Positions 4,462-48,890 of a DNA stretch of 64,000 nt are shown here, in pieces. The position numbers were made by a program, and so were the translations under genes. The notes under the pieces are model-generated. The model did not search any database, was not told where the DNA came from, and was given only the letters and a program-made list of their open reading frames with translations. This stretch comes from an uncultured Thermoplasmatales archaeon. Lineage in GTDB: Archaea; Thermoplasmatota; Penumbrarchaeia; Penumbrarchaeales; Penumbrarchaeaceae. The number at the start of each line of letters is the position of its first letter. The first letter of the stretch is position 1. The stretch lies in the NCBI GenBank assembly GCA_964445525.1, contig CAYULA010000002.1, positions 34,576-98,575 of the forward strand, in the 5' to 3' direction.

Positions 4462-4462
4462 G

Positions 4463-5871: not shown

Positions 5872-5872
5872 G

Positions 5873-8682: not shown

Positions 8683-8687
8683 AGACG

Positions 8688-9302
8688 GTGAAACACCGGA
8701 CACTAACCGGGCCCCATGATAAAAACAGGGTGGCTGAGAGACTCCGGGATTCCTATGTAGGCATAGCCGGCGCCGGAGGCCTCGGATCCAATGTGGCAAT
8801 GTCTCTGGCCAGGGCGGGAGTCGGCCGTCTGCTCATAGCGGATTTCGACAGGGTCGAGGAATCCAATCTCAACAGGCAGTATTTCTTTCTGGATCAGGTG
8901 GGCATGTACAAGGTGGATGCACTCAAGAAGAATATTCAAAAAGCGGTCAGGGACTGCAAGGTTGAGGTCCTGAACAGGAAGCTCGAAAGAGGATCAATGG
9001 CAGCTCCTTTTTCTGAAGTCGATGTGATCGTGGAAGCCCTGGATTCGGCCTCGGTCAAGGTTGCTTTCATAGAGGAGGTCCTGACCGAATTTCCCGAAAA
9101 GCACCTCGTGGCCGCATCTGGAGTGGCAGGAATAGGCGGTTCGAACAGGATAGTTCAGAAGGACCTTGGAAATCTCATATTGGTTGAGGACCCTCAGGCG
9201 CTTTCAAGTGATGTGGAAGTTCTGCTTTCCCCCAAGGTGGGTCAATTCGCGCATCATCAGGCAAACATAGTCCTCCAGCTTCTCCTGGAGGGTGATAGAT
9301 GA
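8688..9302 (+). CDS. ThiF/MoeB/HesA-family E1-like adenylyltransferase
   Basis: Glycine-rich nucleotide-binding motif GIAGAGGLGSNVAMSLARAGVGRLLIADFDRVEESNLNRQ. Confidence 0.65.
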   Translation: MKHRTLTGPHDKNRVAERLRDSYVGIAGAGGLGSNVAMSLARAGVGRLLIADFDRVEESNLNRQYFFLDQVGMYKVDALKKNIQKAVRDCKVEVLNRKLERGSMAAPFSEVDVIVEALDSASVKVAFIEEVLTEFPEKHLVAASGVAGIGGSNRIVQKDLGNLILVEDPQALSSDVEVLLSPKVGQFAHHQANIVLQLLLEGDR

Positions 9303-9499
9303 CAATTACGGTCAACAGGAGGCCGGTGGAATTCGTGGAGGGCGAGACCGTAAAGGACCTCATCAAGAGAATGAGATATACATTCCCTCTACTTGTGGTC
9401 AAGGTTGACGGTAAGCTTGTTCCCGGAAAGCAACAGAAGGATTTCTTGATAGAGGACGGTTCCAGTATCGATATCATTCACCTTACCAGCGGAGGGTAG
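9299..9499 (+). CDS. MoaD/ThiS-like small sulfur-carrier protein
   Basis: 66 aa with a beta-grasp-like sequence ending in the diglycine ...HLTSGG. Translationally coupled to the E1-like gene upstream. Confidence 0.6.
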   Translation: MTITVNRRPVEFVEGETVKDLIKRMRYTFPLLVVKVDGKLVPGKQQKDFLIEDGSSIDIIHLTSGG

Positions 9500-9502
9500 A
9501 GC

Positions 9503-9685
9503 ATGGTTATTACAGATGAAAGAGCAAGAGAGAGGTTTACAGAGATCGCCGTTGAAGGCAGGATTTCCTGTGCAAAGTGTTTCGAGATAGCAGACGAATT
9601 TCATCTGGATAGGAGAGAGATCGCCGAAACATTGACGCAGATGGGCATAAAGATCGTACACTGCCAGCTGGGTTGTTTTCCCTGA
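9503..9685 (+). CDS. Small (60 aa) Cys-containing protein of unknown function (CAKC ... CQLGC)
   Basis: Embedded in the cofactor-biosynthesis operon. The four Cys residues suggest a small metal-binding or zinc-ribbon protein. Confidence 0.35.
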   Translation: MVITDERARERFTEIAVEGRISCAKCFEIADEFHLDRREIAETLTQMGIKIVHCQLGCFP

Positions 9686-10218
9686 GTGGTATCATGCTTA
9701 TCGTATCCCTGATCGGCTTGAAGAAATGCGGGAAGACAACAACCGCAGAGGCATTGATAGGTGAATTTCGAAGGAGAGGGTTCCGGGTCGGTGCCGTCAA
9801 GTTCATGCCCAATTCAACCCTGACACTTGATGTCGAGGGAAAGGACACCTGGAGGCACAGGAACGCAGGTGCGGAATTTGTTATCTCCCTCTCCCGCGGA
9901 GAGATAGGCTATATCGGAAACGTGGAAGGTAGGGCCACGATCGATGATGCCCTGAATATTGTTCCGGAGGGAACCGATATACTTGTCTGCGAGGGCTACA
10001 ACACGACCGATCCCGGGATAATCAAAATAATTCTCGCAAGGGATCCTCCATCTTTGGAGGAAACCATGAAAGTGAGAGGGGTGAAAGGAGATTTCCTGGC
10101 GGTGTCGGGAATAATATCGAATACTGAATTCAACCATCTCGATCTGCCTGTCCTCGATGCAACCTCTCCCATTCAGCTGAAAAAACTGGCGGACCTTATA
10201 ATAGGGAAGGGACAGTGA
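9673..10218 (+). CDS. mobB: MobB-like molybdopterin-guanine dinucleotide biosynthesis adapter (P-loop GTPase)
   Basis: P-loop GLKKCGKTT and the MobB signature GKDTWRHRNAGA. Confidence 0.65.
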   Translation: MFSLSGIMLIVSLIGLKKCGKTTTAEALIGEFRRRGFRVGAVKFMPNSTLTLDVEGKDTWRHRNAGAEFVISLSRGEIGYIGNVEGRATIDDALNIVPEGTDILVCEGYNTTDPGIIKIILARDPPSLEETMKVRGVKGDFLAVSGIISNTEFNHLDLPVLDATSPIQLKKLADLIIGKGQ

Positions 10219-10220
10219 CC

Positions 10221-10502
10221 TCATTTCTTGTCGGTCACCTTGATCAGATGAAAACCGAACTGGGTCTGAACAGGTTCCGATATGTCCCCTTTGTTCAGTG
10301 CGAAGGCCACATCCTCGAAAGGTTTCACCATCTGTCCCTTTCCGAAGTAACCCAGATCGCCACCCCTCTTGCCGGAGGGGCACTGGGAGTGCTTTTTCGC
10401 CAGGTCCTCGAACCTGGCTCCTGCCCTGATCCTGTTCAGTATCTTCGTAGCATCGTTCTTGGAACCAACAAGTATATGACTTGCCCTTACCTGAGATACC
10501 AT
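10221..10502 (-). CDS. Parvulin-type peptidyl-prolyl cis-trans isomerase (~93 aa; start at the internal Met MVSQVRASHILV)
   Basis: Parvulin hallmarks: ...ASHILV..., ...FEDLAKKHSQCPSGKRGGDLGYFGKGQMV..., ...GFHLIKV.... The ORF table's longer N-terminal extension is unlikely. Confidence 0.7.
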   Translation of the reverse strand: MVSQVRASHILVGSKNDATKILNRIRAGARFEDLAKKHSQCPSGKRGGDLGYFGKGQMVKPFEDVAFALNKGDISEPVQTQFGFHLIKVTDKK

Positions 10503-10812: not shown

Positions 10813-11784
10813 ATGGTAGTAGATGAAGACCCCGGCATGATTCGGAAGAAGCAGAGGTCCGACAGGGTCCAGATAGAGGAGACAACCACCTGTCCGGAGT
10901 GCGGAAGCGATCACATAATACGGGATTACGAGAGGGGGGAACTGGTTTGCGGGGACTGCGGTATTGTGATCAACGATCTCCAGATAGACATGGGCCCCGA
11001 ATGGAGAGCCTTCGACTCTGTCCAGACCGAACAGAGGGCAAGAACGGGAGCCCCGATGACCCTTACGATACACGACAAGGGTCTTTCAACGGAGATAGGC
11101 TGGAAGAACAAGGATTCCTACGGAAAGTCCATTCCCACCAGGAACAGGGCCCAGATGTACCGGCTCAGGAAATGGCAGAGAAGGATAAGGGTTTCCAACG
11201 CAACAGAGAGAAACCTGGCCTTCGCCCTTTCGGAACTTGACAGGATGGCGGCGGGAATCGGTCTTCCCCGGAATGTCAGGGAGACCGCCGCGAGGATCTA
11301 CAGGAACGCGGTGAACAAGAACCTGATCAGGGGAAGGTCCATAGAGGGAGTTGTGGCCTCCTCGATCTATGCGGCCTGCAGGCAGTGCAACGTTCCGAGG
11401 ACCCTGGACGAGATCGCATCGGCCTCGAGGGTGGGAAGGAAGGAGATCGGGAGAACCTACCGGTTCATGACAAGGGAGCTCGACATGAGGCTCATGCCCA
11501 CATCACCTCAGGATTATATCTCCAGGTTCTGCTCGGAGCTGAAGCTCTCGGGAGAGACCCAGACAAAGACAATGGAGATCCTCAAGCAGGCGGACGAGAT
11601 GGAGATAACCTCGGGCAGAGGACCCACCGGCATGGCGGCAGCGGCGATCTACATAGCCTCCATAATGACAAACGAGAGGAGGACCCAGAGAGAGGTTGCG
11701 GATGTTGCCGGTGTGACGGAGGTCACCATCAGGAACCGCTACAAGGAGCTTGCGGACAAACTCGGCATCGATCTTGAGATCTGA
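10813..11784 (+). CDS. tfb: Transcription initiation factor TFB (TFIIB homologue)
   Basis: N-terminal zinc ribbon [24 protein letters not shown], followed by two cyclin-fold repeats (...[14 protein letters not shown]..., ...[17 protein letters not shown]...). Confidence 0.9.
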
Positions 11785-12337: not shown

Positions 12338-13828
12338 ATGACATCGAAGCTACCCATTAATCTTGAGGACCTCCTTCATCAGAGAAAAGTAGAGGGGGAC
12401 CGGATCGAATACAAGGCCGGATGGAATCCCGATTCAATTATGAGAACACTATGCGCCTTCGCAAATGATTTCGAGAACATTGGGGGAGGCTACATTGTTA
12501 TAGGTCAGGATACTGATGAAGATGGGAGACCGGTTTTTCCGCCTGTCGGTTTATCAGACAGTCTACTTGATAGGATTCAGCGCGAACTAATTGGATTTTG
12601 CAATCAGATCCAGCCAACCTACTTTCCGGTTTTAAGCTTGGAAGTGTTCCAAGACAAGAATCTTATCGTCTTATGGGCTCCCGGAGGCCAAAATCGTCCC
12701 TATAAGGTTCCAGAATCAGTAATATCAAAGAAAAAGTTACATAAATATTATATTCGACGCTTCACCAGTACTATAGTGGCAAAGGGTGAGGATGAACATG
12801 AATTGCTAAGTCTCACAGCAAAGGTTCCCTTTGATGACAGGTACAATCAAAATGCATCGATTGAGGATCTTTCTGTTTTATTGATGTGGGATTTTCTGAA
12901 AAAAGTAGGAAGTGAATTAGCTGAGGGGGCCAGAAACCTTGGTCATGGTGAAATTGGACTTCAGATAAATGTGGTTGGAGGACCTCCAGAGGCATTATTG
13001 CCGAAAAATGTTGGATTGCTTTTTTTTAACGAAGATCCCGAAAAGTTCTTCCCGGCAACTCAGATAGATGTGGTTTGGTTTCCAGAGGGTCCAGGTGGAG
13101 ATAGATTCGATGAAAAGATTTTCAAAGGACCTTTGGACCGAATTGCCCGAGATGCATTGAGTTATATCCAGATCAATTATCTGAAACAGACTATTATCAA
13201 GCATCCCGATAGGGCTGAGGCTGACCGATTTTGGAATTATCCCTATGTTGCAATAGAAGAAGCTGTAATAAATGCCGTTTACCATCGTTCATACGAGATT
13301 AGAGAGCCAATAGAAATCCGGATAACACCGGAGGATCTATTGGTTTTGAGTTTTCCAGGTCCCGATCGATCAATCAAAATGGAGGACCTTCAAAAAGGTA
13401 AAGCAGTTAGTCGCCGTTACAGGAACAGGCGTATCGGAGATTTCCTTAAGGAATTGGAGTTAACCGAGGGAAGGTCTACAGGGATCTCGAAGATATTAAA
13501 AGTTATACAAAAGAATAAATCTCCTTTACCCGAATTCGAAACCGATGATGATAGAAGCTATTTCATCATCAGGTTCCCGGTCCAACCGGATACGATTTCA
13601 GAAGAAGAAACGGAAAAAAGTTCGGAAAAAAGTTCGGAAAAAAGTTCGGAAGGGATCATGAACTTCATGAGGGTGAATCCAAAAATCACAATATCTGAGT
13701 TGTCTGCTGAGATTGGAATTACTACTAGAGCTATTGAAAAACAGATTGCAAAATTGAAAGCTGAAAAGAAAATTGAAAGAATTGGACCATTAAAAGGTGG
13801 ATACTGGAAAGTGAATTTGGACAAATAA
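12338..13828 (+). CDS. AlbA_2 (Schlafen-like 'divergent AAA') plus HATPase_c_4 family putative transcriptional regulator. Often annotated as RecG-related.
   Basis: N-terminal AlbA_2-type motif (...RIEYKAGWNPDS...LCAFANDFENIGGGYIVIGQD...). HATPase_c_4 motif (...IEEAVINAVYHRSYE...). C-terminal HTH (ISELSAEIGITTRAIEKQIAKLK). The gene is visibly AT-richer than its flanks. Confidence 0.65.
   Translation: MTSKLPINLEDLLHQRKVEGDRIEYKAGWNPDSIMRTLCAFANDFENIGGGYIVIGQDTDEDGRPVFPPVGLSDSLLDRIQRELIGFCNQIQPTYFPVLSLEVFQDKNLIVLWAPGGQNRPYKVPESVISKKKLHKYYIRRFTSTIVAKGEDEHELLSLTAKVPFDDRYNQNASIEDLSVLLMWDFLKKVGSELAEGARNLGHGEIGLQINVVGGPPEALLPKNVGLLFFNEDPEKFFPATQIDVVWFPEGPGGDRFDEKIFKGPLDRIARDALSYIQINYLKQTIIKHPDRAEADRFWNYPYVAIEEAVINAVYHRSYEIREPIEIRITPEDLLVLSFPGPDRSIKMEDLQKGKAVSRRYRNRRIGDFLKELELTEGRSTGISKILKVIQKNKSPLPEFETDDDRSYFIIRFPVQPDTISEEETEKSSEKSSEKSSEGIMNFMRVNPKITISELSAEIGITTRAIEKQIAKLKAEKKIERIGPLKGGYWKVNLDK
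13611..13646 (+). repeat. Three perfect tandem copies of the 12-bp unit CGGAAAAAAGTT inside the coding sequence (encodes SEKS-SEKS-SEKS)
   Basis: Direct reading: cggaaaaaagtt appears three times, then cggaaggg. Confidence 0.9.
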
Positions 13829-14470: not shown

Positions 14471-15373
14471 TTAAAACATGAGTTCCGAGGACCTCAACAG
14501 ATCCAGCATTAGATCGATGAAAGGTCTGAGATTGCCATCAACCTGTCCAATTTCAAGACAGCTGTAGTATTCCATTTTCCTTCTGCTGGGGATGTTGACC
14601 ATGGGATAACCCTTCGAATGGAGGATGAAATTCATCAGGAGCCTGCCCACCCTTCCGTTTCCATCCACGAAGGGATGAACTGTCTCGAATCCCATGTGGA
14701 AATATGATGCAAGCACAAGCGGGTGCAGTACATGCCTGTTTCTGGTATACCACGAGAGGAGCTCCTTCATATCCTCGGGTACATCCTGTGGAGACGGGGG
14801 CATCCATTCCACCCCCCTGATGAATACCTGCACATCCCTGTATCTCCCGATCTGTCCTTTCAGATCCTCCCGGATCGCATCCTCCATTACAAGTTCATGA
14901 AGCTTCATTATCAGGTCCCTTGACATATCTCCTCTGTAAGCCAGGATGAAATCGAATCCCTTCTTGTGATTGATAACCTCATTTATCTCCCTGAGGTGCT
15001 TGGCCCGAGGTGTGATGCCTTCGAAGAGCAGACCCGCTGTTTCCTGGAGGGTCAATGTATTTCCCTCTATTGCGGTGGAATCGTGGGTGAACCTGGAAAG
15101 GAATGTCTCGTATCTGTTCATCCAGTTCTCCTTTGGAAGTGTGGAATACCTCGATTTTATCATCCCAAGTTCCTCGATCTCCGATCCCGAAAGCAGGTTT
15201 TCGAGGACGTGAAGCTCCCTGTCGGCTTCTCTTTCAAGCCTTTCCCGCTCTTTATCGGAGAGATCCTTTCCGAGGTAGATTCTGTTCTTTTTCACCTTTC
15301 CCTCCCTCCTTCTGGACCTGACCCTGTAGTAATATGACGACCCGTTCCTTTCCTTTCTTTCCGTATAGCTCAT
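14471..15373 (-). CDS. Fic/Doc-family protein (putative AMPylator) with an intramolecular inhibitory helix
   Basis: Canonical Fic active-site motif HPFVDGNGRVGR. An upstream (S/T)xxxE(G/N) inhibitory motif STAIEGN, which is the class II / intramolecular arrangement. Confidence 0.8.
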   Translation of the reverse strand: MSYTERKERNGSSYYYRVRSRRREGKVKKNRIYLGKDLSDKERERLEREADRELHVLENLLSGSEIEELGMIKSRYSTLPKENWMNRYETFLSRFTHDSTAIEGNTLTLQETAGLLFEGITPRAKHLREINEVINHKKGFDFILAYRGDMSRDLIMKLHELVMEDAIREDLKGQIGRYRDVQVFIRGVEWMPPSPQDVPEDMKELLSWYTRNRHVLHPLVLASYFHMGFETVHPFVDGNGRVGRLLMNFILHSKGYPMVNIPSRRKMEYYSCLEIGQVDGNLRPFIDLMLDLLRSSELMF

Positions 15374-15515
15374 GATAATTGTACGTCCACACTGATAGAT
15401 ATTTATTTTGGTTTGTGGACGTACAATGTACGTCTACATTAACAAAGTAAAAACGAACCATTGTAGTCGTACACATCCAAAATATCAATTTAGAGGTTTG
15501 ACGGTACCCGAATTC

Positions 15516-16070
15516 ATGCCGACAGATGATCCTTATGAGGTTCTCGGGGTCCCCAGGGATGCCGATATCACGGAGATCAGGAAAGCCTACAAGAACCTGG
15601 CAAGGAAGCTCCATCCCGACAAGAGCGGATCCAATGTCAGGGCGCTTGAACAGATGAAGCTTGTCAATGAAGCATATGCGATACTTTCTAACAAGAGAGC
15701 AAGGGACATCCTGGAAGACGAGGAAGACTGGAAATGCAATGCTACGGAGGAAACCAGGGAGAAAGTGTGGAAGGAGTACTCCAAACAGGTTGAGGAATAC
15801 TACCAGCAGGTGCAGTCCTACCTTGAGACCGAGCTCTCCTCAATAAAAAGGGAAAGGGAGAAGCTCTCCGGGATCGAATTGAAGCTCAGAAAAAGAGAGG
15901 AAGAACTGAAAAAAAGGGAATCGGAGATTGAAAGCAGTATCAAAAAAAGAGAGGATTACATTTCCAGGAAGGAATCGGAGCTGGACGAGCTCCTGATGCT
16001 GATCTCACGCTCCAATTCCATCGTGGTTGATCTGGCCCAGTCCTCCAAATCCCTGAGAAACAGGAAATAA
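15516..16070 (+). CDS. J-domain (DnaJ-like) protein with a coiled-coil C-terminus. It has no zinc-finger or substrate-binding domains.
   Basis: DPYEVLGVPRDADITEIRKAYKNLARKLHPDK carries the HPD motif. The start is at Met 15516 (MPTDDPYE). The C-terminal half is charged and coiled-coil-like. Confidence 0.7.
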   Translation: MPTDDPYEVLGVPRDADITEIRKAYKNLARKLHPDKSGSNVRALEQMKLVNEAYAILSNKRARDILEDEEDWKCNATEETREKVWKEYSKQVEEYYQQVQSYLETELSSIKREREKLSGIELKLRKREEELKKRESEIESSIKKREDYISRKESELDELLMLISRSNSIVVDLAQSSKSLRNRK

Positions 16071-16072
16071 CA

Positions 16073-16543
16073 TCATTCGATCTGTGCATAAACCTCTGTC
16101 AGGATCTCTTCGGGGGGAACCTCACTCGGGTCGTTGAGATAATATTCCCTGTATGGACCTTTCACTTCCTTTCCGTTTTCTTTCATCCATCCGAACAACC
16201 TGTTGTATGAATCCCCCACCTTCTCGTAGGGTCCCTTGTGGATGGTCTTTACCATCTTCACCCGTGGCAGTTCGTAATGTTTGATCTCGTCTGTCTCCAG
16301 GATTTTTCCGGTCACGGGGATTGCCACTTCGAGGTCCGCATTATTGTTTTTCATTGCCTCCTCAACCGCTTCCATCGTGAGTTCGTGGCAGAGGAATACG
16401 GGAGGTCCGGCGACCTCCATTCCGCTGGTCATAACGTGTTCGAACAACTTTGGAATCAGCTTCCCGGTGTCCTGGTAAGCTCCCCTGGCTCTCATTCCCA
16501 CAACCTTTAACGGTTCAAGTTCAACGATCTCGATATCTTCCAT
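16073..16543 (-). CDS. GyrI-like / AraC-effector-binding-domain small-molecule-binding protein
   Basis: Two tandem half-domains, each with a 'G..Y' core (...VGMRARGAYQD... and ...VKTIHKGPYEKVGDSYNRLFGWM...). Confidence 0.5.
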   Translation of the reverse strand: MEDIEIVELEPLKVVGMRARGAYQDTGKLIPKLFEHVMTSGMEVAGPPVFLCHELTMEAVEEAMKNNNADLEVAIPVTGKILETDEIKHYELPRVKMVKTIHKGPYEKVGDSYNRLFGWMKENGKEVKGPYREYYLNDPSEVPPEEILTEVYAQIE

Positions 16544-22040: not shown

Positions 22041-23063
22041 ATGGCTGAAGGAAAACCCTGGAAGAATCTTACCATAGAGAGAAAGGGTTCGAAATTGAAC
22101 CTGAGACATCCAATCTTTCCAGGACCTATGGCAGGGGCCTTCGAACCTCCCTACAGAATGATGCTCCATGACATTGGGATCGAACTATCCTTCACAGAGA
22201 TGATCTCCGCCAGGGGCACCATAGAGGGATCCGGGAAAACCCTGGAACTCGCGGGCTGGGTGCCGGAGAAGGGATATTCGGGAGCGCAGGTATTCGGTTC
22301 CGATGCGAATTATGTCTCCGGTGCGGCCAGGGAGATGGTGAGGCTGGGGCATGATATTATCGATCTGAATGCAGGCTGTCCCAAGCGGAAGGTGCTGGTC
22401 CAGGGTTCCGGCGGAGCTCTCCTGAAAGAACATGAACGGTTCGTCTCGATTGCTTCTTCCATTCTGGATTCGGTGGATGTACCCGTCAGTGTGAAGACCA
22501 GATCGGGATTCCATGTTTTCGAACCGAATCCATTTAAAAAATTGTTGAAAGACTTAGAAAGTATCGGAATATCCATGATATCCATACACGGACGCACAGT
22601 CAGACAGGGATACAGGGGCAGTGCCGACAGGGATGTGATCTCCCAAGCCGCCTCGATCGTGGATATTCCGGTCATTGCATCGGGTGACGTGAGGTCCCTG
22701 GCGGATGTTTTAGACTATTTCGGCAGGGGAGCTTCCGGAGTGATGGTCGGCAGGGCCATGATGGGAGACCCTTTCTTCATTTCGAGGATCATTTCCGAAG
22801 ACCAAGACCCGTTTCCCTCAAAATCAGATGATGTTGAAAGGATTTTTTCCATGGCAGCGAGACACCTGGACCTCTCGATCGATTATTACGGAGAGAAGAG
22901 GGGATGCATGAAGTTCAGAAGTCAGCTCGGTTGGTATGTCCGTTCGTTCAAGGGAAGGAAACCATACATGGACAGGATCCATCATGCATCCTCAAAGGAT
23001 GATTTCACAAGTCTCATGACCGAGATCTTGCATGAATGGAAGCGTCAGCCGGGTACTTGTTAA
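22041..23063 (+). CDS. dus: tRNA-dihydrouridine synthase (Dus family, TIM-barrel flavoenzyme). Start at Met 22041.
   Basis: PMAGAFEPPYRMM..., DLNAGCPKRKV (the Dus catalytic Cys region) and TIM-barrel spacing. The ORF table's upstream extension overlaps the divergent transporter gene. Confidence 0.75.
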   Translation: MAEGKPWKNLTIERKGSKLNLRHPIFPGPMAGAFEPPYRMMLHDIGIELSFTEMISARGTIEGSGKTLELAGWVPEKGYSGAQVFGSDANYVSGAAREMVRLGHDIIDLNAGCPKRKVLVQGSGGALLKEHERFVSIASSILDSVDVPVSVKTRSGFHVFEPNPFKKLLKDLESIGISMISIHGRTVRQGYRGSADRDVISQAASIVDIPVIASGDVRSLADVLDYFGRGASGVMVGRAMMGDPFFISRIISEDQDPFPSKSDDVERIFSMAARHLDLSIDYYGEKRGCMKFRSQLGWYVRSFKGRKPYMDRIHHASSKDDFTSLMTEILHEWKRQPGTC

Positions 23064-28846: not shown

Positions 28847-28957
28847 GGGGCCAGGCTCCTGGGGGTGGTAGGATATATATCTAATAAATCTGGTTATAAC
28901 TAATTTACCACTGAATGGGTGAGCAATATTTATATTCCATACCCTTTGGGCGCCACA

Positions 28958-30022
28958 ATGGACCTCGATCTCTTCGATTATGATCTGCCCCAGGAGATGA
29001 TCGCACAATCGAAATCTTATCCCAGGGATATGTCCCGTCTCTTCCATCTCGATGCCAGGGGAGCTGTTTCGAGGTATCGGCATATGAGGTTCAAGGATAT
29101 CGTTGAAAAGCTTGACCCCGGTGATATCCTGATTTTGAATCGCTCCAGGGTGATCCCAGCGAGGATAAGGACCAGGAAACCCACCGGGGGAAGGTCCGAG
29201 GTATTGCTCCTTGGAAGATCGGGCCGATTTGATTGGGAAGCACTTGTCGGCGGGAAAAGGATCGAGGAAGGCATGGTTCTACTCACCAAAGTGGGTGACA
29301 TGCGGATATCCGTGGAAAGGAGATTGGAAGAGGGAAGGTGCATGGTTTGCTTTTACCGGGACGGAGAGAAGGTTCCCCACCATGAAGTTCTGGAATGGCT
29401 CAGTGAATTCGGGCTGATGCCAACTCCCCCATACATCAAAAGGATGCTCTCCGATCCCGAGGAGTATCAGACGGTTTACGGCAACATAGAGGGATCGGTT
29501 GCCGCTCCAACCGCTGGACTTCACTTCACGGACGAGCTGTTGGAGAGCATCAGGAAAAAAGGAGTGGAGGTGTTGTTTGTTGTACTCCATGTCGGGTTGG
29601 GTACTTTCGCTCCTGTCAAATCCGCCAACATCAAGGATCACGTTATGGAGGAAGAGGAATACCTGGTACCTCCGGAAGTTGCTGAAAAGATAAGGGAAGC
29701 GATCTCTGATCATGATAAAGGCAAAAAGAGGATATGGGCAGTGGGGACAACCGTCATGAGAACACTGGAATCCGCATTCGACGGCAATGGAAATCTTGTG
29801 AAATCATCGGGAAGAACCGGACTCTATATCACCCCCGGATATCAATTCAAGATTCCATACAAGGGTTTCATCACCAATTTCCATCTTCCGAGGTCCACCC
29901 CTCTGATACTTGTCTCGGCCTTTCACAACCGGGAGGGAATTCTGGATGCTTACGAGGAGGCAAAGAGGGTGGGATACAGGTTCTATTCACTCGGTGATTC
30001 CATGATGATAAGGAAGGGATGA
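28958..30022 (+). CDS. queA: S-adenosylmethionine:tRNA ribosyltransferase-isomerase (QueA)
   Basis: DLFDYDLPQEMIAQ...PRDMSRL..., ...VAAPTAGLHFTDELL..., ...VGTTVMRTLES..., ...TNFHLPRSTPLILVSAF...YRFYSLGDSMMI. These match QueA along its full length. Start at Met 28958. Confidence 0.8.
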   Translation: MDLDLFDYDLPQEMIAQSKSYPRDMSRLFHLDARGAVSRYRHMRFKDIVEKLDPGDILILNRSRVIPARIRTRKPTGGRSEVLLLGRSGRFDWEALVGGKRIEEGMVLLTKVGDMRISVERRLEEGRCMVCFYRDGEKVPHHEVLEWLSEFGLMPTPPYIKRMLSDPEEYQTVYGNIEGSVAAPTAGLHFTDELLESIRKKGVEVLFVVLHVGLGTFAPVKSANIKDHVMEEEEYLVPPEVAEKIREAISDHDKGKKRIWAVGTTVMRTLESAFDGNGNLVKSSGRTGLYITPGYQFKIPYKGFITNFHLPRSTPLILVSAFHNREGILDAYEEAKRVGYRFYSLGDSMMIRKG

Positions 30023-31161
30023 TGATGACCGTTTTCAGGCTAGAGAGAGGTGGAAGTAAAGGTCCAAGGGCCGGGATATTGAACCTCCCATCGGGGATCT
30101 CCGTCGAGACACCGCTTTTCATGCCGGTTGCCACCAAGATGTCGGTGAAAACCCTGGAACCCGATGAACTGGCAAGGACCGGAACGGGCACCGTGATAAC
30201 AAACGGTTTTCTATCGTCATTGGAACCCGGGAGCGAGGTCATAAGGACCATGGGCGGAATGCATGCGATGATGGGCTGGGACGGGGGCATCTTCTCGGAC
30301 TCGGGAGGCTTCCAGTTCATAAGGAAGGGATTCGATGCCGATGTATCCGATGAAGGTGTGGGGTTGAGGTCCCCCTTTAACGGGGAGAAGGTATTCATAA
30401 CCCCGGAAAGCGTTGTTGATATGCATACCAGGCACGGGGTGGATGTTGGCATGGTCCTTGATCATTGCCCCCCCTATCCTTCCACAAAGGAGGATCTCTC
30501 CGCTTCATCCAACCGGACCATCTATTGGGCCAGGAGATCCATTCTCAGGTTAAAGGATAATAAATTGAATGATATGCTGCCCCCGGGAAAGAAACCTCCT
30601 CTCCTGTTTGCGATCACCCAGGGAGGGACGGATTCGTCCACGAGGAAGAAGTGCACGGAAAGCCTCGTTGAGATGGATTTTCCCGGGTACGGAATAGGGG
30701 GCCTTTCCATTGGAGAATCCAAAACGGAGACCTTCAGGTCCCTGGAGGCATCGACCTCCCTCATTCCGGAGGAGAGACCGAGGTATTTCATGGGGGTGGG
30801 GGACCCTGACGATATGATCAGATCTATTATGGCGGGGGTGGATATCTTCGACAGCGTCTTCCCCACCAGGAATGCAAGGCACAGGTCTGTTTTTACCCAT
30901 TCTGGCAGGGAGAATATCAGGGCCTCGGGATGGAAGGGAAAAGAGGACCCGATCAGGAAGGAATGTATGTGTGATACATGCAGGAGATTCTCCAGGGCAT
31001 ACCTGTATCATCTTTTCAAGGCAGGGGAGCCGCTGGGTCCCAGATTGGCGACCGTGCACAACATTTTCTATCTTCAGGAACTCGTTTCCAGAATAAGGAA
31101 GCTCATATTTGAAGATGATATGAAAGGAACCTTGACTTCCACTGGAGTAATGGACCCTTGA
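30019..31161 (+). CDS. tgt: Queuine/preQ1-type tRNA-guanine transglycosylase (bacterial/eukaryotic-type Tgt, ~380 aa, no PUA extension)
   Basis: DSGGFQ, GVGDPDDM...DIFDSVFPTRNARH, and the zinc motif CMCDTCRRFSRAYLYHL. The start overlaps the queA stop, so the two form an operon. Confidence 0.8.
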   Translation: MMMTVFRLERGGSKGPRAGILNLPSGISVETPLFMPVATKMSVKTLEPDELARTGTGTVITNGFLSSLEPGSEVIRTMGGMHAMMGWDGGIFSDSGGFQFIRKGFDADVSDEGVGLRSPFNGEKVFITPESVVDMHTRHGVDVGMVLDHCPPYPSTKEDLSASSNRTIYWARRSILRLKDNKLNDMLPPGKKPPLLFAITQGGTDSSTRKKCTESLVEMDFPGYGIGGLSIGESKTETFRSLEASTSLIPEERPRYFMGVGDPDDMIRSIMAGVDIFDSVFPTRNARHRSVFTHSGRENIRASGWKGKEDPIRKECMCDTCRRFSRAYLYHLFKAGEPLGPRLATVHNIFYLQELVSRIRKLIFEDDMKGTLTSTGVMDP

Positions 31162-34125: not shown

Positions 34126-37100
34126 ATGAAACGAGAGGTATTCGCGGTACTGATTACATTCGGATTGTTATTGGTAACTGGAGAATCAGTTTTCGGTATA
34201 ATTGCCGAAAATGAGGATATTGAACCCATGATTCCAGAATTTGATTTTCAGTTTTCAGGAGGAAATGGGACCAAAATCAATCCATACAAAATCTCGAACA
34301 TAACGGAGCTCCAATGGATGGGAAATACGTCGAATCTGGATAAACATTTCATTTTTATAAACGATATCAATGCATCCGCAACTTTAACCTGGAATGGAGG
34401 AAATGGATTCGATCCGGTTGGTGATTCAAGCAACCGCTTCGATGGCTCGATTAACGGCAATGGTTACAAAATAATAAATTTATTAATAAACAGATCGAGT
34501 GATGACTTTGTAGGGTTGGTAGGTGATCTTGGAGTAACAGGATATCTCTCCAATATCACAATGCTAAATGCCTCGATAAATGGCGAGGACATTTGCGGAA
34601 TTCTTGCTGGCAGATCTTTCAAAGGAACAATTCATAATTGCTCCGTAAACGGATCGGTGAAAGGATCAACAAATATCGGAGGTTTGGTTGGCAGAAACCA
34701 TGAAGGAAAAATTTCAAATTGCTTTTCTGGTTGTAATGTAATCGGGAGGGGACAGAAAATTGGAGGTATGGTAGGTTATAATGAAGATGCAAAAACTTTT
34801 GAAAACTGTAGTTCAAGATCTTATGTTAAGGGAACTGAAAATGTTGGAGGATTGATTGGAGATAATGAAGGATCATTTATTGAATGGTCGAATTCAACAT
34901 CCATGGTGATTGGAACCGGAGCTGTGGGAGGTTTAATCGGGTATAATCATTTTTATTCAAGAATTACTAATTGTCATTCGAGATTTGAAATAAATTCCAC
35001 AAGAGATAATATTGGAGGACTTATCGGGAAGAATCAAAACAACTGTCCAATATTCCACAGTGGTTCAATTGGAAAAATAAATGGTAGGAATCAACTTGGA
35101 GGAATTGCAGGTTACAACAATCAAAAAATCATCAATTCATCCTCAGAGGTTGAAATAACAGGTCAAAGTATGATTGGAGGTTTAGTAGGAGAAAATCATG
35201 GAGAAATAAGGAATTGCACGGCTGATGCTGAAATTGAAGGTGTCCAAAGATTAGGAGGATTGGTTGGTGATGGTAGGGACAAATCGATTTATGATAGTAT
35301 ATCTTATGGAAATGTTACAGGAACCACTTACTATATCGGAGGATTTGTAGGTGGTATTATTTCGATTGATGTAATCAATTGTCGATCATATGCTAATGTT
35401 AATTCAACAGGAGAATATGTTGGTGGATTTGCGGGTTATCCAAGTTTATCTAATATAAAGAATAGTTTATCCGATTGTGAAGTAAAGGGAGAAACCAACG
35501 TGGGAGGTTTTTTAGGTGTAAACTCTTATTGTATCATTGAAAATTGTCATTCATTTGGATGGGTTAACAGTACAAAGGATTATACTGGCGGTTTCATAGG
35601 ATTGAATTTAGGTACGATATCAAATTGTTCCTCCCTTTCAAATGTTAACGGAAAGAAATCCACTGGAGGTTTAATTGGAAAGAACAATAATAATTATGAA
35701 ATTAAGGAATGTTTCTCCAATGGTAATGTTACAGGAACCGATTACATAGGTGGTTTAATTGGTGAGAATTACGGTAAAATCTTGAATTGTTATTCTCAAG
35801 GTGGTGTGAATGGACCTATGAATAAATTGGCATATTTTGGTGGTTTATTAGGATATAATAACGGTAGAGTAACAAATTCGTATTCCACAGGAAAAGTAAC
35901 CGGAACATTTAGGAAAGGATTCATTGGTGATAATTACGGAACAGTTCAAAATAGCTTTTGGGACTATGAATCTTCAGGAGTTACATATAGTGACGGTGGA
36001 ACAGGAAAAAACTCTTCCGAGATGAAATCTCAGAACACATTTTCATCAGCAGGATGGGATTTCAACGAAACCTGGTACATTATTGAAGATGAAACCTATC
36101 CAATGTTATCCAATAATTTAATGGATTATTCCGTTCCGGTATTTCTTGATGATTATACAAATATTTCAGGGTCTACCGGGACCAATTTTACCTTTAACAT
36201 TAGTGTAACAGATAATATTGGTTTAAGTTTTGTAATGGTAGAATTCTGGTATGGCAATGGTTCGCATTTAGAAAAACAATTGAAGCTCAATAATACATAT
36301 AAAACCTTTACTGAATTGCCCGTTAATTCCACTGATACCCTATATTATTTTTTTCACGCAAGAGATTTCAAGGGAAATACTAATTCTACACCAATAAAAA
36401 ATGTAACAATCAATGATATTTTGATCCCGTTTTTTAGTAATGAAACAACACAAAATAATGGTACGACCGGTGATCAATTTCAATTCAAGATATATGCATA
36501 TGACAATATCGGTATCCAGAACGTATATTTGGAATATTGGTCAAACTTCACAAAGAAAACTAATGTTTCCATGGAGGAAAACGGTTATTTTATCAAAAAT
36601 ATACTTTTACCCTCCAATGTAACAAATATCTCTTATCAGTTCCATGCAGTGGATTTATCTTTCAATTGGAAAAGCACAGATGTAAAAACTTTATTAGTAT
36701 TGGATAACGACAAACCTCTATTTGGTAAGGACCTCACTGCTGATAACTGGACAACAGGAGATATTGTCGAATTTTCCATTATTGTACAGGATAATATCAA
36801 TGTCAATAGTGTCAAAATAGAATACTGGTTCGGTTCGGGACCTCGATTCAATGAATCCATGGTTTTCGATTCTGGATCCTATACCTTCGATCTCATGATC
36901 CCCCCGGATTCGCTTGATCAGCTTCACTACATCTTCCATGCGGTGGATACCTCGGGCAACTGGAACAGGACCGATCAGATCGATGTGGCTGTTCTGGATG
37001 ATGATAGACCAATCTTTGGTATGGATGGATCTGCGGTTCTGGGAACCACAGGTGAACAGTACCGTTTCGGAATCGGAGTGGTTGACAATATCGGTATCGA

Positions 37101-38634
37101 GGAGGTCAAGGTGGAATACTGGTTCGGAGAAGGGCCTCACACCAATGTCACAATGACCGGGGGCGGTCCTTTTTCCCACATTGCCGATATACCACTGGAT
37201 TCTTCAGAAACACTGCATTACATCTTCCACGCATCGGATACCTCCGGCAACTGGAACCATACCCCGCAGGTGGATGTGGATATACTTGACAACGATCTGC
37301 CGGCATTCATGGAGGATCTCTCAGATACCACGGCGACAACGGGTGATAATTTCTCTTTCGAGATCGAGGTGACTGACAACATCGGTATCTCCGATGTTTA
37401 CGTGGAGTACTGGTTCGGGACCGGAGACCATAACAATGAATCCATGATTTCAGTGGATTCCTTTGGTTTGAGAATCGAGATCCCATCCGACTCGGTGGAG
37501 AGGCTCAATTACATCTTCCATGCAGTGGATGAATCCGGGAACTGGGCACACACGGACCGGGTGGATATCCAGATCGCAGATAATGACATGCCGGAAATGA
37601 TCGCCGACGAGAGTCCGGACGAAGCTTTTACCGGAGAGGATCTGGAGATAATTATCCGTGCAACCGATAACATCGGGTTGGCAGAGGTCGAACTTATCTG
37701 GATGATCGGATCGGATATTGATGAACAAAGAGTCGATATGGACCTCGAGTCAGGGAATTATGTTCACACCATCCAGGTTCCGGTCGATACGGTTGATCCT
37801 CTCCGGTACGTGATGAGGATAATCGATACCTCGGGTAACATATTCGAATCGGATGAAGCAACCATTACCATAACTGACAGTATATCTCCAACCGTCGATC
37901 CTGTGGATGATATCACTGTTTATGATGGACAGGACCTCGATGTCAATGTAACAGGGTCGGATAATATCGGTATCGCTTCATATTCGTGGGAAGGAGCTCC
38001 CATCGATGCAGATGGTTCCGAACTGAAAGGGATCGTGACAGTTCCGGGTGATCATGATATCACTGTCACCATTTCCGATGAGGAGGGCAATACCGATTCC
38101 ACTACTTTCAGAGTCACGGTTCTTGCGGAGGACCATGACACTGATTCCGACGGCATCCCGGACCTAGTCGAAATGGAGTGGGGCCTCTCCATCGAGGATC
38201 CTTCGGATGGCGAGGAGGATGCAGATAATGACGGGATGTCCAATGCTCTGGAGTATGCGAACGGGACCCTTCCCTTTGATGATGATACCGATGATGACGG
38301 AATGCCGGACGGATGGGAGGACAGCTACGGCCTGGATCCAACGACCTCCTCTTCAGATAACGATGCCGATGGTGACGGCAAGACCGACCTTGAGGAGTAT
38401 CGGGAAGGTACCGATCCTCTGATCAAGGAAAAGGAAGATGACGATGATGGCGGAGGATCCCCGATAGTGATCATTGTGATCATCGCGGTTGTTATCCTCA
38501 TTGCTATCGGTCTTTTGCTGTTTTTCCTTACCAGAAAGAAGGAAGAAAAATTGGAAAATGAGCCCTCCGATGGTCAGGACACATCAGAAAATGCTATTGA
38601 GGATCCAAGAGATGATGAAAATGAAAATCCTTGA
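34126..38634 (+). CDS. Giant (1502 aa) surface protein. An N-terminal array of ~25-aa GLUG-type repeats, eight ~100-aa Ig-like repeats, thrombospondin-type-3-like Asp-rich calcium-binding repeats, a C-terminal TM anchor and a short acidic tail.
   Basis: GLUG-like periodicity (...NIGGLVGRNHEGKISNCFSGCNVIGRGQKIGGMVGYN... repeated ~25 times). The repeated module ...DNIGI..V..EYWFG.G... occurs eight times. DTDSDGIPD, DADNDGMSN, DTDDDGMPDGWEDSYGLDP and DNDADGDGKTDLEEY are also present. TM IVIIVIIAVVILIAIGLLLFFL. Confidence 0.6.
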   Translation: MKREVFAVLITFGLLLVTGESVFGIIAENEDIEPMIPEFDFQFSGGNGTKINPYKISNITELQWMGNTSNLDKHFIFINDINASATLTWNGGNGFDPVGDSSNRFDGSINGNGYKIINLLINRSSDDFVGLVGDLGVTGYLSNITMLNASINGEDICGILAGRSFKGTIHNCSVNGSVKGSTNIGGLVGRNHEGKISNCFSGCNVIGRGQKIGGMVGYNEDAKTFENCSSRSYVKGTENVGGLIGDNEGSFIEWSNSTSMVIGTGAVGGLIGYNHFYSRITNCHSRFEINSTRDNIGGLIGKNQNNCPIFHSGSIGKINGRNQLGGIAGYNNQKIINSSSEVEITGQSMIGGLVGENHGEIRNCTADAEIEGVQRLGGLVGDGRDKSIYDSISYGNVTGTTYYIGGFVGGIISIDVINCRSYANVNSTGEYVGGFAGYPSLSNIKNSLSDCEVKGETNVGGFLGVNSYCIIENCHSFGWVNSTKDYTGGFIGLNLGTISNCSSLSNVNGKKSTGGLIGKNNNNYEIKECFSNGNVTGTDYIGGLIGENYGKILNCYSQGGVNGPMNKLAYFGGLLGYNNGRVTNSYSTGKVTGTFRKGFIGDNYGTVQNSFWDYESSGVTYSDGGTGKNSSEMKSQNTFSSAGWDFNETWYIIEDETYPMLSNNLMDYSVPVFLDDYTNISGSTGTNFTFNISVTDNIGLSFVMVEFWYGNGSHLEKQLKLNNTYKTFTELPVNSTDTLYYFFHARDFKGNTNSTPIKNVTINDILIPFFSNETTQNNGTTGDQFQFKIYAYDNIGIQNVYLEYWSNFTKKTNVSMEENGYFIKNILLPSNVTNISYQFHAVDLSFNWKSTDVKTLLVLDNDKPLFGKDLTADNWTTGDIVEFSIIVQDNINVNSVKIEYWFGSGPRFNESMVFDSGSYTFDLMIPPDSLDQLHYIFHAVDTSGNWNRTDQIDVAVLDDDRPIFGMDGSAVLGTTGEQYRFGIGVVDNIGIEEVKVEYWFGEGPHTNVTMTGGGPFSHIADIPLDSSETLHYIFHASDTSGNWNHTPQVDVDILDNDLPAFMEDLSDTTATTGDNFSFEIEVTDNIGISDVYVEYWFGTGDHNNESMISVDSFGLRIEIPSDSVERLNYIFHAVDESGNWAHTDRVDIQIADNDMPEMIADESPDEAFTGEDLEIIIRATDNIGLAEVELIWMIGSDIDEQRVDMDLESGNYVHTIQVPVDTVDPLRYVMRIIDTSGNIFESDEATITITDSISPTVDPVDDITVYDGQDLDVNVTGSDNIGIASYSWEGAPIDADGSELKGIVTVPGDHDITVTISDEEGNTDSTTFRVTVLAEDHDTDSDGIPDLVEMEWGLSIEDPSDGEEDADNDGMSNALEYANGTLPFDDDTDDDGMPDGWEDSYGLDPTTSSSDNDADGDGKTDLEEYREGTDPLIKEKEDDDDGGGSPIVIIVIIAVVILIAIGLLLFFLTRKKEEKLENEPSDGQDTSENAIEDPRDDENENP

Positions 38635-40214: not shown

Positions 40215-41237
40215 ATGCTGGTGGAAGCTGTAGATGACGACATCAAGAGGGATGTCTGGAAGAGGGACGAGTTCACGTGCCGCTACTGCGGGAGGACCGT
40301 TGCATGGGAGGATGTGAACCTTGTTTTGGATGTGCAGCCGGAAAAAGGAGGAGAGGTTGCCCCCTCAAATATGCTCACTGTCTGCTCCACCTGTTTGACC
40401 GAGGGAAAGACAGCCCCCGTAGAGGAGAAGGACAAGCAGAGACTTCTGGGAATAATCAGAGAGCTCGTCTGCTACACCGATCTCACAGACGAGGTAATAT
40501 TCGAGATGGACCACGAGCAGGAGATCGAGAGGCTCCTTGCGAAGATGCAGGCCCTCAAGGAGGATAATCAGAGGCTTTCTGCCGCAATTCAGCAGAGGGA
40601 GAGGCTTGCAATAGGTTACAAGCAGAAGATGGACAGGGTCCTCAAGGATATGGAAAACTTGAAGAGAAGACAGGAGTCGGATATAGAACTGAGAGTGGAT
40701 GAGGGCACCAGAAAGGTAATCCTGTCCATGATCGAGACCCTTGACGATATCGACAGGGCCATCCAGGAAGCAAGGAAGGATAACGGAGTCAAGGAGGTTC
40801 AAAATATCATTTCCGGCCTGGGAATGATAAGGAAAGCCTTGATGGACAGGCTGAGGTCACAGAGTGTCCAGAAACTGGACCCCAAGGGGGAGATATTCGA
40901 TCCGAACTATCACGAAGCGGTATCCTCGGTGATGAATAGAAAGGTCCCCAAGGGAACGGTCCTCGAGGTCCGGCAGCCGGGTTTCATCCGGGGCCACCAT
41001 CTTCTCAGACCGGCCATGGTGATCATATCCAAGGGTGGTAAAAAACCCGAAAGGAAAGAACCCGAGAAACTGGAGGAGTTCGAGCTGGACGAGGAGACAG
41101 ATGAGATAGAGGTCCTCCCCCTGGAACCCTGGACGCCGGGCAGTAACGATACCGAATTCGTGGTCAAGAAACCAAAGAAGAAGAAAAGGGTTTCAAAACG
41201 GAAGAAAAATACTCAATCCAAGGGCGATAAAACATAA
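40215..41237 (+). CDS. grpE: GrpE nucleotide-exchange factor with an N-terminal degenerate HNH-like zinc ribbon and a Lys-rich C-terminal tail
   Basis: The GrpE C-terminal domain is clear (...GMIRKALMDRL...GEIFDPNYHEAVSSV...VLEVRQPGFIRGHHLLRPAMVIISKG), preceded by a long coiled coil. The N-terminus WKRDEFTCRYCGR...LDVQPEKGG...NMLTVCSTC resembles an HNH zinc finger with the catalytic His replaced (DVQ for DHI). Confidence 0.7.
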   Translation: MLVEAVDDDIKRDVWKRDEFTCRYCGRTVAWEDVNLVLDVQPEKGGEVAPSNMLTVCSTCLTEGKTAPVEEKDKQRLLGIIRELVCYTDLTDEVIFEMDHEQEIERLLAKMQALKEDNQRLSAAIQQRERLAIGYKQKMDRVLKDMENLKRRQESDIELRVDEGTRKVILSMIETLDDIDRAIQEARKDNGVKEVQNIISGLGMIRKALMDRLRSQSVQKLDPKGEIFDPNYHEAVSSVMNRKVPKGTVLEVRQPGFIRGHHLLRPAMVIISKGGKKPERKEPEKLEEFELDEETDEIEVLPLEPWTPGSNDTEFVVKKPKKKKRVSKRKKNTQSKGDKT

Positions 41238-48026: not shown

Positions 48027-48890
48027 TTAAGCTTCATCGAGACCCGAGATCTCTTCTCTCAGACCCTCGTATCTGTCGGAAAGCTGATTCAGGGCATAAT
48101 TGAGAGCATCCTTTGCCGGAATCGATCCATCGGTCTCGAATGTGAAGACGAACTTGTCCTCCTCGTAGGAAATCTCGACCGCCTTTTCGCCGTTTATGGC
48201 ATCCAGGGCTGAAGAATCGTAGTAGTTGGGATCCATTTTCTCCAGGGGTTTGAGGTCCTTGACAACGATCTTTCCCTTCTCATAGGCAAGGACCCCCTCG
48301 GGGAATACCTTCACTACCTCCTGGGGGTCATCAAGCTTGGCATTCTTGTTGACTACCAGCTTGGGGTAGTTCATGAATCCGCAGATTGTAACCGGCTGCC
48401 ACTTGGCATGGGTCTTTCCCATTCCGAGCACCGCCGTGGCATAGATCAGAAGCGCCTGTTTCTCCTTGAGCTTCACAACAGGTATGAGCTCCTCCTTGAT
48501 CCTGAGGCTCATATCGCCCAGAGGCTGAAGGTCCCCGGAATATACCGTGCAGGGTCCTTTCTTGTTCATTACATATATTATCGTGCAGTGAGGACACCCG
48601 GTTCCCCCGCATTCGCACTGATCCCTGAACGTGAAGTGCTCCAGGTCTGTGGGAATGGGAACCAGGCTGAGCCTGTGGGCGATCATCTCGTCGAAGAGGG
48701 CGGAATTGGAATCGTATTCGTTTCCCTCCTCGTCCCTGATCGGCCCCATATGGAACTCAACCTCGTCGATGGCCATCTTGGGGACATCGGATATGAGCGT
48801 TCTCCTGATAGAATTCATTACGTCGGGTCTGACCTTGTCTACAACCAGCGTGCATTTCGTATCGGTCAGCTCCCTTACCTCCAATTTCAT
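48027..48890 (-). CDS. rpoD: DNA-directed RNA polymerase subunit D (Rpo3) with a Cys-rich Fe-S cluster-type insertion
   Basis: The typical Rpo3/RpoD N-terminus (...VRELTDTKCTLVVDKV...VMNSIRRTLISDVP...) and a Cys cluster QCECGGTGCPHC. Its position after uS11 is the conserved archaeal order. Confidence 0.85.
   Translation of the reverse strand: MKLEVRELTDTKCTLVVDKVRPDVMNSIRRTLISDVPKMAIDEVEFHMGPIRDEEGNEYDSNSALFDEMIAHRLSLVPIPTDLEHFTFRDQCECGGTGCPHCTIIYVMNKKGPCTVYSGDLQPLGDMSLRIKEELIPVVKLKEKQALLIYATAVLGMGKTHAKWQPVTICGFMNYPKLVVNKNAKLDDPQEVVKVFPEGVLAYEKGKIVVKDLKPLEKMDPNYYDSSALDAINGEKAVEISYEEDKFVFTFETDGSIPAKDALNYALNQLSDRYEGLREEISGLDEA

Follow-up and report, generated by a model that had tools for sequence, protein, structure and literature searches.

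A bacterial-type queA-tgt operon in a Thermoplasmatota clade, predicted to modify position 34 of archaeal tRNAs

Queuosine and archaeosine serve as domain markers, and the absence of queuosine from Archaea is still asserted in papers of 2025-26. Do some archaea have the enzymes to modify position 34 of their tRNAs in the bacterial way? The question is raised by a queA-tgt gene pair in a 64,000-nucleotide stretch of contig CAYULA010000002.1, from an uncultured Thermoplasmatales archaeon of marine sediment. This whole stretch is called the window here. An original prediction, made from the letters of the window, had read the pair as bacterial-type queuosine genes in an archaeal genomic context. 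Our analysis of the sequences indicates that the pair is probably a functional two-gene operon of bacterial origin, which has been kept stably on the chromosome, by vertical inheritance, in a Thermoplasmatota clade to which the class EX4484-6 belongs.

The phenomenon as such has been published before. Castelle et al. 2021 (Front Microbiol, PMC8204110) reported bacterial QueA, QueH and Tgt, predicted from sequence, in 34 archaeal genomes. According to this paper, QueA, QueH-like and Tgt genes are co-localised in DPANN archaea, and a figure names Methanosarcinales. The original prediction had stated that archaea are not known to make queuosine, which holds for experiments, but was too broad with regard to genes already reported. 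The operon of the window is a further lineage of this published phenomenon, with standard enzymes, and not a new kind of system. What it adds is a lineage in which the operon is tight, native-looking and inherited vertically over many species. We found no relevant paper linking queuosine to Thermoplasmatota in the literature. Because one member of the lineage exists as an enrichment culture, it is also a practical one for testing archaeal queuosine.

Layout of the operon and identity of its enzymes

Related loci were collected by scanning one genome per GTDB species for Tgt and taking the 80 best loci, with about 10 kb around the match. The clade referred to throughout comprises 18 GTDB species representatives of Thermoplasmatota, whose Tgt is 60-76% identical to that of the window. 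In the window, the operon and its upstream region consist of the following features (aa, amino acids):

28958..30022, plus strand: queA, ATG start, 354 aa; S-adenosylmethionine (SAM):tRNA ribosyltransferase-isomerase, predicted to turn preQ1(34)-tRNA into epoxyqueuosine(34)-tRNA
30019..31161, plus strand: tgt, 380 aa; bacterial-type tRNA-guanine(34) transglycosylase, predicted to exchange G34 for preQ1
30011..30018, plus strand: Shine-Dalgarno-like purine-rich stretch AGGAAGGG, abutting the tgt start within the 3' end of queA; putative function, from its sequence
28847..28957, no strand: divergent intergenic region of 111 bp, between a minus-strand gene for a DsbD/redoxin membrane protein and queA
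28926..28936, plus strand: TATA-box-like element ATATTTATATT, its centre about 27 nt 5' of the queA ATG; putative promoter, from position and conservation

The two genes overlap by 4 bp in an ATGA, where the queA stop codon TGA (30020-30022) runs over the tgt ATG (30019-30021). Together with the Shine-Dalgarno-like stretch, this overlap would allow tgt to be translated by coupling. The intergenic region holds two A/T-rich TATA-like boxes, one per direction, at about 28871-28889 and 28926-28936. The DsbD/redoxin gene starts with an ATG at 28846 on the minus strand, a start placed after the gene called in the related locus L001. A comparable A/T-rich box (TTTATAT, TTTTAATAA, TTTAAAT, TTTATAA and similar) lies 20-45 nt before queA in 15 of the 15 other clade loci with a readable upstream region. 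This spacing fits an archaeal TATA-type promoter, from which a leaderless or, probably, near-leaderless queA-tgt mRNA would be transcribed. An in-frame GTG at 28919 was also considered as the start of queA. It was rejected, because the clade homologues, of about 355 aa, align from the ATG at 28958, and the TATA-like box sits between both candidate starts.

Judged by its family matches, the gene 5' of tgt encodes a genuine QueA. The protein matches Pfam PF02547 (E = 2.6e-105) and exceeds the cut-offs of two NCBIfam equivalog models, NF001140 (363.5 bits, cut-off 324) and TIGR00113 (314.6 bits, cut-off 267.45), with a coverage of residues 1-352 of 354. Solved bacterial QueA structures, those of Thermus thermophilus (1wdi), Thermotoga maritima (1vky) and Bacillus subtilis (1yy3), align with residues 3-351 at E = 1e-78 to 1e-82. 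The end-to-end alignment, the passing of both equivalog cut-offs and the tgt partner are what it shares with the bacterial enzymes. It differs from them in having an archaeal host, and in belonging to a sequence clade common to other Thermoplasmatota. We predict that it forms epoxyqueuosine from preQ1-tRNA and SAM.

The downstream gene encodes a Tgt which, by sequence, is of the bacterial position-34 type and not an archaeosine transglycosylase (ArcTGT, also TgtA), and for which G34 exchange activity is predicted. PF01702 is its sole Pfam domain (E = 3.6e-114, residues 16-369). It scores 358.7 bits against TIGR00430, the NCBIfam equivalog for the bacterial queuosine-34 (Q34) enzyme (cut-off 306.75), and 86.6 bits, well below the cut-off of 350, against the ArcTGT model TIGR00432. 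Among solved structures, the TGT of Zymomonas mobilis is matched at E = 4e-82, with about 279 bits over residues 16-365. Eukaryotic QTRT1 scores lower, at about 1e-68 to 1e-70 and 232-239 bits, and the ArcTGT of Pyrococcus horikoshii (1iq8) is matched at E = 3e-16. The 380-aa protein has a single TIM barrel with a zinc subdomain, and no PUA or C-terminal domains. ArcTGT (TIGR00432; PDB 1iq8), the enzyme normally expected in archaea, shares with it the superfamily, the fold and the base-exchange chemistry. However, ArcTGT is about 580 aa long and carries C-terminal (C1, C2) and PUA domains; its target is G15, where it inserts preQ0.

The active site can be compared residue by residue with that of Z. 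mobilis TGT, from an alignment that was checked on the translation (window residue first, Z. mobilis residue second):

D94, D102: general acid/base
F98, Y106: residue of the DSGG(Y/F)Q motif in the substrate site
D148, D156: preQ1 pocket
C150, C158: preQ1 pocket
G228-L229-S230, G230-L231-A232: peptide switch
I231, V233: pocket size
E233, E235: control of the peptide switch
D278, D280: nucleophile
R284 and R287, R286 and R289: tRNA contacts (anticodon loop)
C316, C318, C321 and H347, C318, C320, C323 and H349: zinc site
F324, Y328 and H331, W326, Y330 and H333: aromatic residues of the dimer interface

With the exception of F324 and Y328, these residues are invariant across 30 aligned clade sequences, H331 of the dimer interface included. 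The catalytic and zinc residues do not vary across 93 aligned sequences. Both motifs named in the original prediction occur in the protein (DSGGFQ, residues 94-99; CMCDTC, residues 316-321), but the fourth zinc ligand is H347 and not, as had been proposed, the His of 'YHL'.

The pocket of the eukaryotic queuine-inserting enzyme has Val at Z. mobilis position 158 and Gly at position 233. A Cys at 158 and a branched aliphatic residue at 233, as in the window Tgt with C150 and I231, is on sequence grounds the bacterial preQ1 pattern. The eukaryotic QTRT1/QTRT2 enzyme (PDB 6h45, 7nq4) has the target position and the fold in common with the window Tgt, but is a heterodimer, and its enlarged pocket takes up free queuine for insertion. 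Besides the two pocket residues and the lower score, the coupling to QueA separates the window Tgt from this type, because a QueA would be pointless for a queuine-inserting enzyme.

Among the closest known systems is the bacterial Tgt of the Z. mobilis/Escherichia coli type (TIGR00430; PDB 1ozm, 1enu and others). The window Tgt resembles it in length (about 380 aa), in the TIM barrel with zinc subdomain, in the matched catalytic, pocket and zinc residues, and in the position of tgt directly 3' of queA, as in many bacteria. It differs in its archaeal host and its place behind an archaeal-looking TATA box. The identity to Z. mobilis is moderate, and lies at 33-44% for the sampled bacterial Tgt sequences. 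Further differences are S230/I231 for A232/V233, F98 for Y106 and F324 for W326, and the fact that it falls in a group whose labelled members are all archaeal. On the two enzymes themselves, the original prediction has held up well. It had named the upstream gene queA, had described a 380-aa Tgt with bacterial/eukaryotic Q-type motifs and without PUA extension, and had proposed translational coupling of the pair, all in agreement with the family models, the structure matches and the ATGA overlap.

Predicted pathway and its end product

From the biochemistry of the bacterial enzymes, the following route can be proposed. Tgt, probably a homodimer like its bacterial counterpart, would swap G34 for preQ1 in tRNA-Asp, -Asn, -His and -Tyr, whose anticodon loops read U33-G34-U35, with D278 as the nucleophile and D94 as the general acid/base. 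QueA would transfer the ribosyl part of SAM to the preQ1 aminomethyl group and isomerise it, which gives epoxyqueuosine. The archaeosine pathway of archaea should supply the precursor preQ0. The step to preQ1 would need a QueF-type reductase or uptake from the environment, and the conversion of epoxyqueuosine to queuosine would need QueG, QueH or an unknown analogue.

On balance, we favor the view that members of the clade, including 'Candidatus Penumbrarchaeia', carry epoxyqueuosine or queuosine at position 34 of their Asp, Asn, His and Tyr tRNAs, probably beside archaeosine at position 15, with both modifications drawing on one preQ0 pool. If this is true, the textbook absence of queuosine from Archaea would be overturned, and archaeal translation would be shown to be able to take up a bacterial system for anticodon modification and to retain it for a long time. 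Furthermore, it would raise the question of how one preQ0 pool serves the modification of both position 15 and position 34.

Several observations weigh against a functional operon with the proposed route. Pfam and NCBIfam scans of all sizeable open reading frames (ORFs), by which the window was annotated, revealed no QueC, QueD, QueE, QueF, QueG or QueH, no YhhQ/QueT-type transporter, no ArcTGT and no ArcS within the 64 kb. Loose motif patterns for QueH, QueF, QueC, QueD and QueE had no match at 10 kb or less from tgt in any archaeal locus; QueG, ArcTGT and transporters were not looked for there. Genes for tRNAs with a GUN anticodon, the potential substrates, were not present in the window and the loci, which had only a tRNA-Leu(GAG). 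No experimental report of queuosine in an archaeon was found in the literature. In the Tgt pocket, S230 and I231 depart from A232 and V233 of Z. mobilis; Ile at the V233 position is found in 7 of the aligned bacterial sequences, and Ser at the A232 position also occurs among the sampled bacteria. Finally, in a neighbor-joining tree the 62 archaeal Q-type Tgt group together with a weak bootstrap of 27%, and the bacterial Tgt sample consisted of genomes matching two peptide motifs and is hence biased. For these two reasons we claim neither a donor lineage nor a single origin. Whether Tgt nests among bacterial sequences had been raised with the original prediction: the family is of the bacterial type, but the archaeal Q-type sequences fall together, with the weak support and the sampling bias just mentioned.

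The Q34-type pathway which the original prediction derived from the gene pair stands, by sequence, for its two tRNA-level steps, and not for the remainder, as QueF, QueG/QueH and precursor transporters were not found in the window. With QueF, QueG and QueH not seen there, the end product could be epoxyqueuosine or queuosine. An Rfam scan of the window gave no match. ORF clustering and motif patterns around tgt in the 80 related loci revealed queuosine or archaeosine genes only in Actinomycetota, in the form of a QueH-like ORF (CC[AGS]PC pattern, CCGPC motif) directly 5' of queA in three loci.

A variant of the functional-operon reading is that the genes are active in a truncated or salvage-dependent pathway. 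The cells would be unable to make preQ1 and would need it, or another queuosine precursor, from neighboring bacteria, or they would have no epoxyqueuosine reductase, and their tRNAs would carry epoxyqueuosine or only preQ1. This would agree with the lack of QueF, QueG and QueH in the window and of QueH and QueF motifs beside the operon in archaeal loci, as well as with the dense sediment communities which these organisms inhabit (PMC12220078). On the other hand, absences from 64 kb mean little for a megabase-sized genome, and the co-localised QueH in DPANN (Castelle et al. 2021) indicates that archaeal QueH homologues exist. We regard the truncated pathway as clearly less probable than not.

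Tgt might also have been recruited to another target, such as G15 of the D-loop in place of ArcTGT, another RNA, or DNA as in DpdA-like proteins, with QueA acting on the product. One fold and one base-exchange chemistry are indeed common to the whole TGT superfamily. However, the window Tgt passes the Q34 equivalog cut-off and fails that of ArcTGT, it has retained a preQ1 pocket of the bacterial kind (C150, L229-S230, E233) as well as R284 and R287, which contact the anticodon loop, and it is devoid of the C-terminal and PUA domains that ArcTGT uses. Moreover, it is still coupled to QueA, which requires preQ1 on tRNA, and no dpd-type genes were annotated nearby in the window. Such a change of target therefore appears quite improbable, and we retain position 34 as the predicted site.

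Archaeal context and inheritance of the operon

The queA-tgt pair is a constant feature of the clade. In 18 of 18 species queA lies directly 5' of tgt, and in most loci the two genes are spaced by -4 to +2 bp. The gene order of the window is found again on the 430.7-kb contig CAWEDU010000009 and the 85.7-kb contig CBDDUX010000014 (isolate 'Protein_d157_A_EX4484-6'), at a Tgt identity of 74-76%. The shared order is EamA, dihydrouridine synthase (Dus), a 996-aa surface protein, DsbD/redoxin, queA, tgt, a surface protein, ATPase_2, GrpE, a TPR protein and aldehyde dehydrogenase. Across the clade loci, the identities of Tgt (60-76%) and QueA (52-76%) drop in parallel with those of EamA, Dus, DsbD and GrpE. 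Neighbor-joining trees of Tgt and QueA have matching groupings inside the clade, which itself has a bootstrap of 88% in the Tgt tree.

The closest named relative belongs to the class EX4484-6. This class was renamed 'Candidatus Penumbrarchaeia' in 2025, and is a rare Thermoplasmatota lineage of marine sediment and water column (PMC12220078). One class member was enriched on protein and reached about 90% of the archaeal 16S reads (PMC12220078). This organism, 'Ca. Penumbrarchaeum helgolandense' (assembly CBDDUX01), is that closest relative, represented by locus L004. The publication is silent on queuine, tgt and archaeosine.

The surroundings of the operon in the window are archaeal, as indicated by these genes:

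10813-11784: TFB
48027-48890: RNA polymerase subunit D (RpoD)
56031-57956: FttA/aCPSF1
58122-58763: proteasome beta subunit

In addition, the window encodes the ribosomal proteins S11, S4 and S13, a class-I HMG-CoA reductase, an aldehyde:ferredoxin oxidoreductase (AFOR), a member of the archaeal adenosine-specific kinase family, UPF0179 and DUF123. The operon fits into this background by its composition, with a GC content of 0.516 versus 0.499 for the window. The GC content at third codon positions and the codon usage of both genes are typical of the window, and in distance from the mean they rank 18th (queA) and 10th (tgt) of 39 genes. Two genes served as an internal control. Those at 12338-13828 and 34126-38634 have a low GC content (0.41 versus 0.50 for the window) and a deviant codon usage, and clearly stand out, so the codon-usage method is able to detect foreign DNA in the window.

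Because the codon usage is native and the divergence tracks that of the neighboring genes, the sequence comparison supports an old acquisition of the pair, followed by vertical inheritance. At the level of the aligned sequences, it demonstrates long-term purifying selection on the operon in an archaeal lineage.

That this one genome received the pair from a bacterium only recently, by horizontal transfer, is very unlikely. The enzymes are of the bacterial type, and the window does hold recently acquired low-GC genes, the two of the internal control. Against this, the pair occupies the same chromosomal position in 18 species, between neighbors that have diverged equally, and its codon usage is native. 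Furthermore, the nearest matches outside the clade are archaeal and not bacterial, with 43-52% identity; the nearest of them, at about 50%, are again queA-tgt pairs, and lie beside archaeal pilin and XPD-type helicase genes.

Even less credible is an assembly or binning artefact, in which a bacterial fragment with this common bacterial gene pair was joined to archaeal DNA or is a contamination: the window belongs to a contig of 128 kb, its QueA is identical to a protein of another assembly, the DsbD|queA junction is reproduced with 100% identical proteins in the independent Logan assembly of SRR7048224, the neighborhood recurs on two contigs of other studies, and the pair, of native composition, is present in all 18 clade species. 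The recurrence of the junction in independent assemblies and across 18 related species shows that the contig is no chimera. A chimera at 28850-28960 had been named as one of the findings that could undo the original prediction. Its further claims, of unambiguously archaeal surroundings (TFB, RpoD, aCPSF1 and the proteasome) and of a native GC content that suggests an old acquisition, are likewise borne out by the gene positions, the codon usage and the parallel divergence of the neighbors.

The two low-GC genes are likely recent insertions. The one at 34126-38634 (plus strand) encodes a 1502-aa surface protein with GLUG motifs, and has no counterpart at the syntenic position in the relatives, such as on the 430-kb contig. 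The other, at 12338-13828 (plus strand), encodes a protein with Schlafen/AlbA_2 and HATPase_c_4 domains.

Wider distribution and neighboring genes

Bacterial-type Tgt is spread more widely among archaea. Among the 120 best database matches to the window Tgt, 17 of the 17 proteins with an organism label are archaeal, and come from Thermoplasmatota, Thermoplasmata, 'Euryarchaeota', Methanoperedens, ANME-2, Hydrothermarchaeales and uncultured archaea. NCBI already names the Thermoplasmatota homologues 'tRNA guanosine(34) transglycosylase Tgt', and the QueA homologues are named likewise. Archaeal loci make up 50 of the best 80. Thermoplasmatota sensu lato account for 29 of them, including one Methanomassiliicoccales and one 'Methanobacteriota', and the others belong to Woesearchaeota, Nanoarchaeota and 'Methanosarcinales'. 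The queA-tgt pair also occurs in loci of Caldisericum, WOR-3, TA06, Saccharibacteria and Actinomycetota.

A different arrangement is found in the Woesearchaeota/Nanoarchaeota-type loci (L029, L033, L036, L039, L045, L047-L050, L057 and L061; around 5000-10300). Their tgt is not beside queA, and instead adjoins a bacterial-type aspartyl-tRNA synthetase (AspRS) with a GAD domain; tRNA-Asp belongs to the queuosine substrates. Two of these loci, L039 and L050, are labelled 'uncultured Methanosarcinales archaeon', and have a gene order in common with L033, L045, L047, L048 and L061. This order comprises AspRS, a metallo-beta-lactamase, an M20 peptidase, translin and a triplicated unknown gene. Because it matches that of the Woesearchaeota/Nanoarchaeota loci, the Methanosarcinales labels of some loci may be unreliable.

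The DPANN and Methanosarcinales sets of Castelle et al. resemble the window lineage in having bacterial-type QueA and Tgt in genuine archaeal genomes, in both cases by sequence prediction. They differ from it in their co-localised QueH-like gene, whereas the window lineage is a Thermoplasmatota clade including EX4484-6 with no QueH nearby. A further difference is the tight queA-tgt operon in a conserved neighborhood in the window, as opposed to the tgt beside AspRS in the DPANN loci of our collection.

Five other Thermoplasmata loci have a conserved ORF of about 180 aa directly 5' of queA (L035:8463-8993, L041:1144-1674, L043:8478-9017, L056:70-633 and L058:8494-9042). It has a CxxC...CxxC motif, an acidic middle and a basic C-terminus, and matched no Pfam or NCBIfam family. 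By its look it is a zinc-ribbon protein and not an enzyme, and it was set aside.

Other genes of the window may also be of the bacterial type. A Dus gene (22041-23063, plus strand) lies 6 kb 5' of queA and keeps its position in the neighborhood across the clade. The protein scores 236.5 bits against TIGR00737 (bacterial DusB), below the cut-off of 293, and 25.7 bits against the MJ0144-type family of archaeal Dus-like proteins. The lineage may have in it a second tRNA-modification gene of bacterial type. GrpE (40215-41237, plus strand) and a separate 220-aa J-domain protein (15408-16070, plus strand) are components of a bacterial-type Hsp70 system, and the synteny of GrpE with the queA-tgt neighborhood is conserved.

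The AFOR gene is part of a cluster at 4021-9302 and 9673-10218. The enzyme has 846 aa with an N-terminal extension of about 120 aa, and is accompanied by MobB, a protein of the ThiF family, and two to three small proteins, membrane-bound or secreted, which are unannotated and bear a faint similarity to molybdopterin oxidoreductases. At 14471-16543, a Fic/DOC-family protein, the J-domain protein and a GyrI-like small-molecule-binding protein are grouped beside the low-GC Schlafen-like gene, and may form a small accessory or defence-like island.

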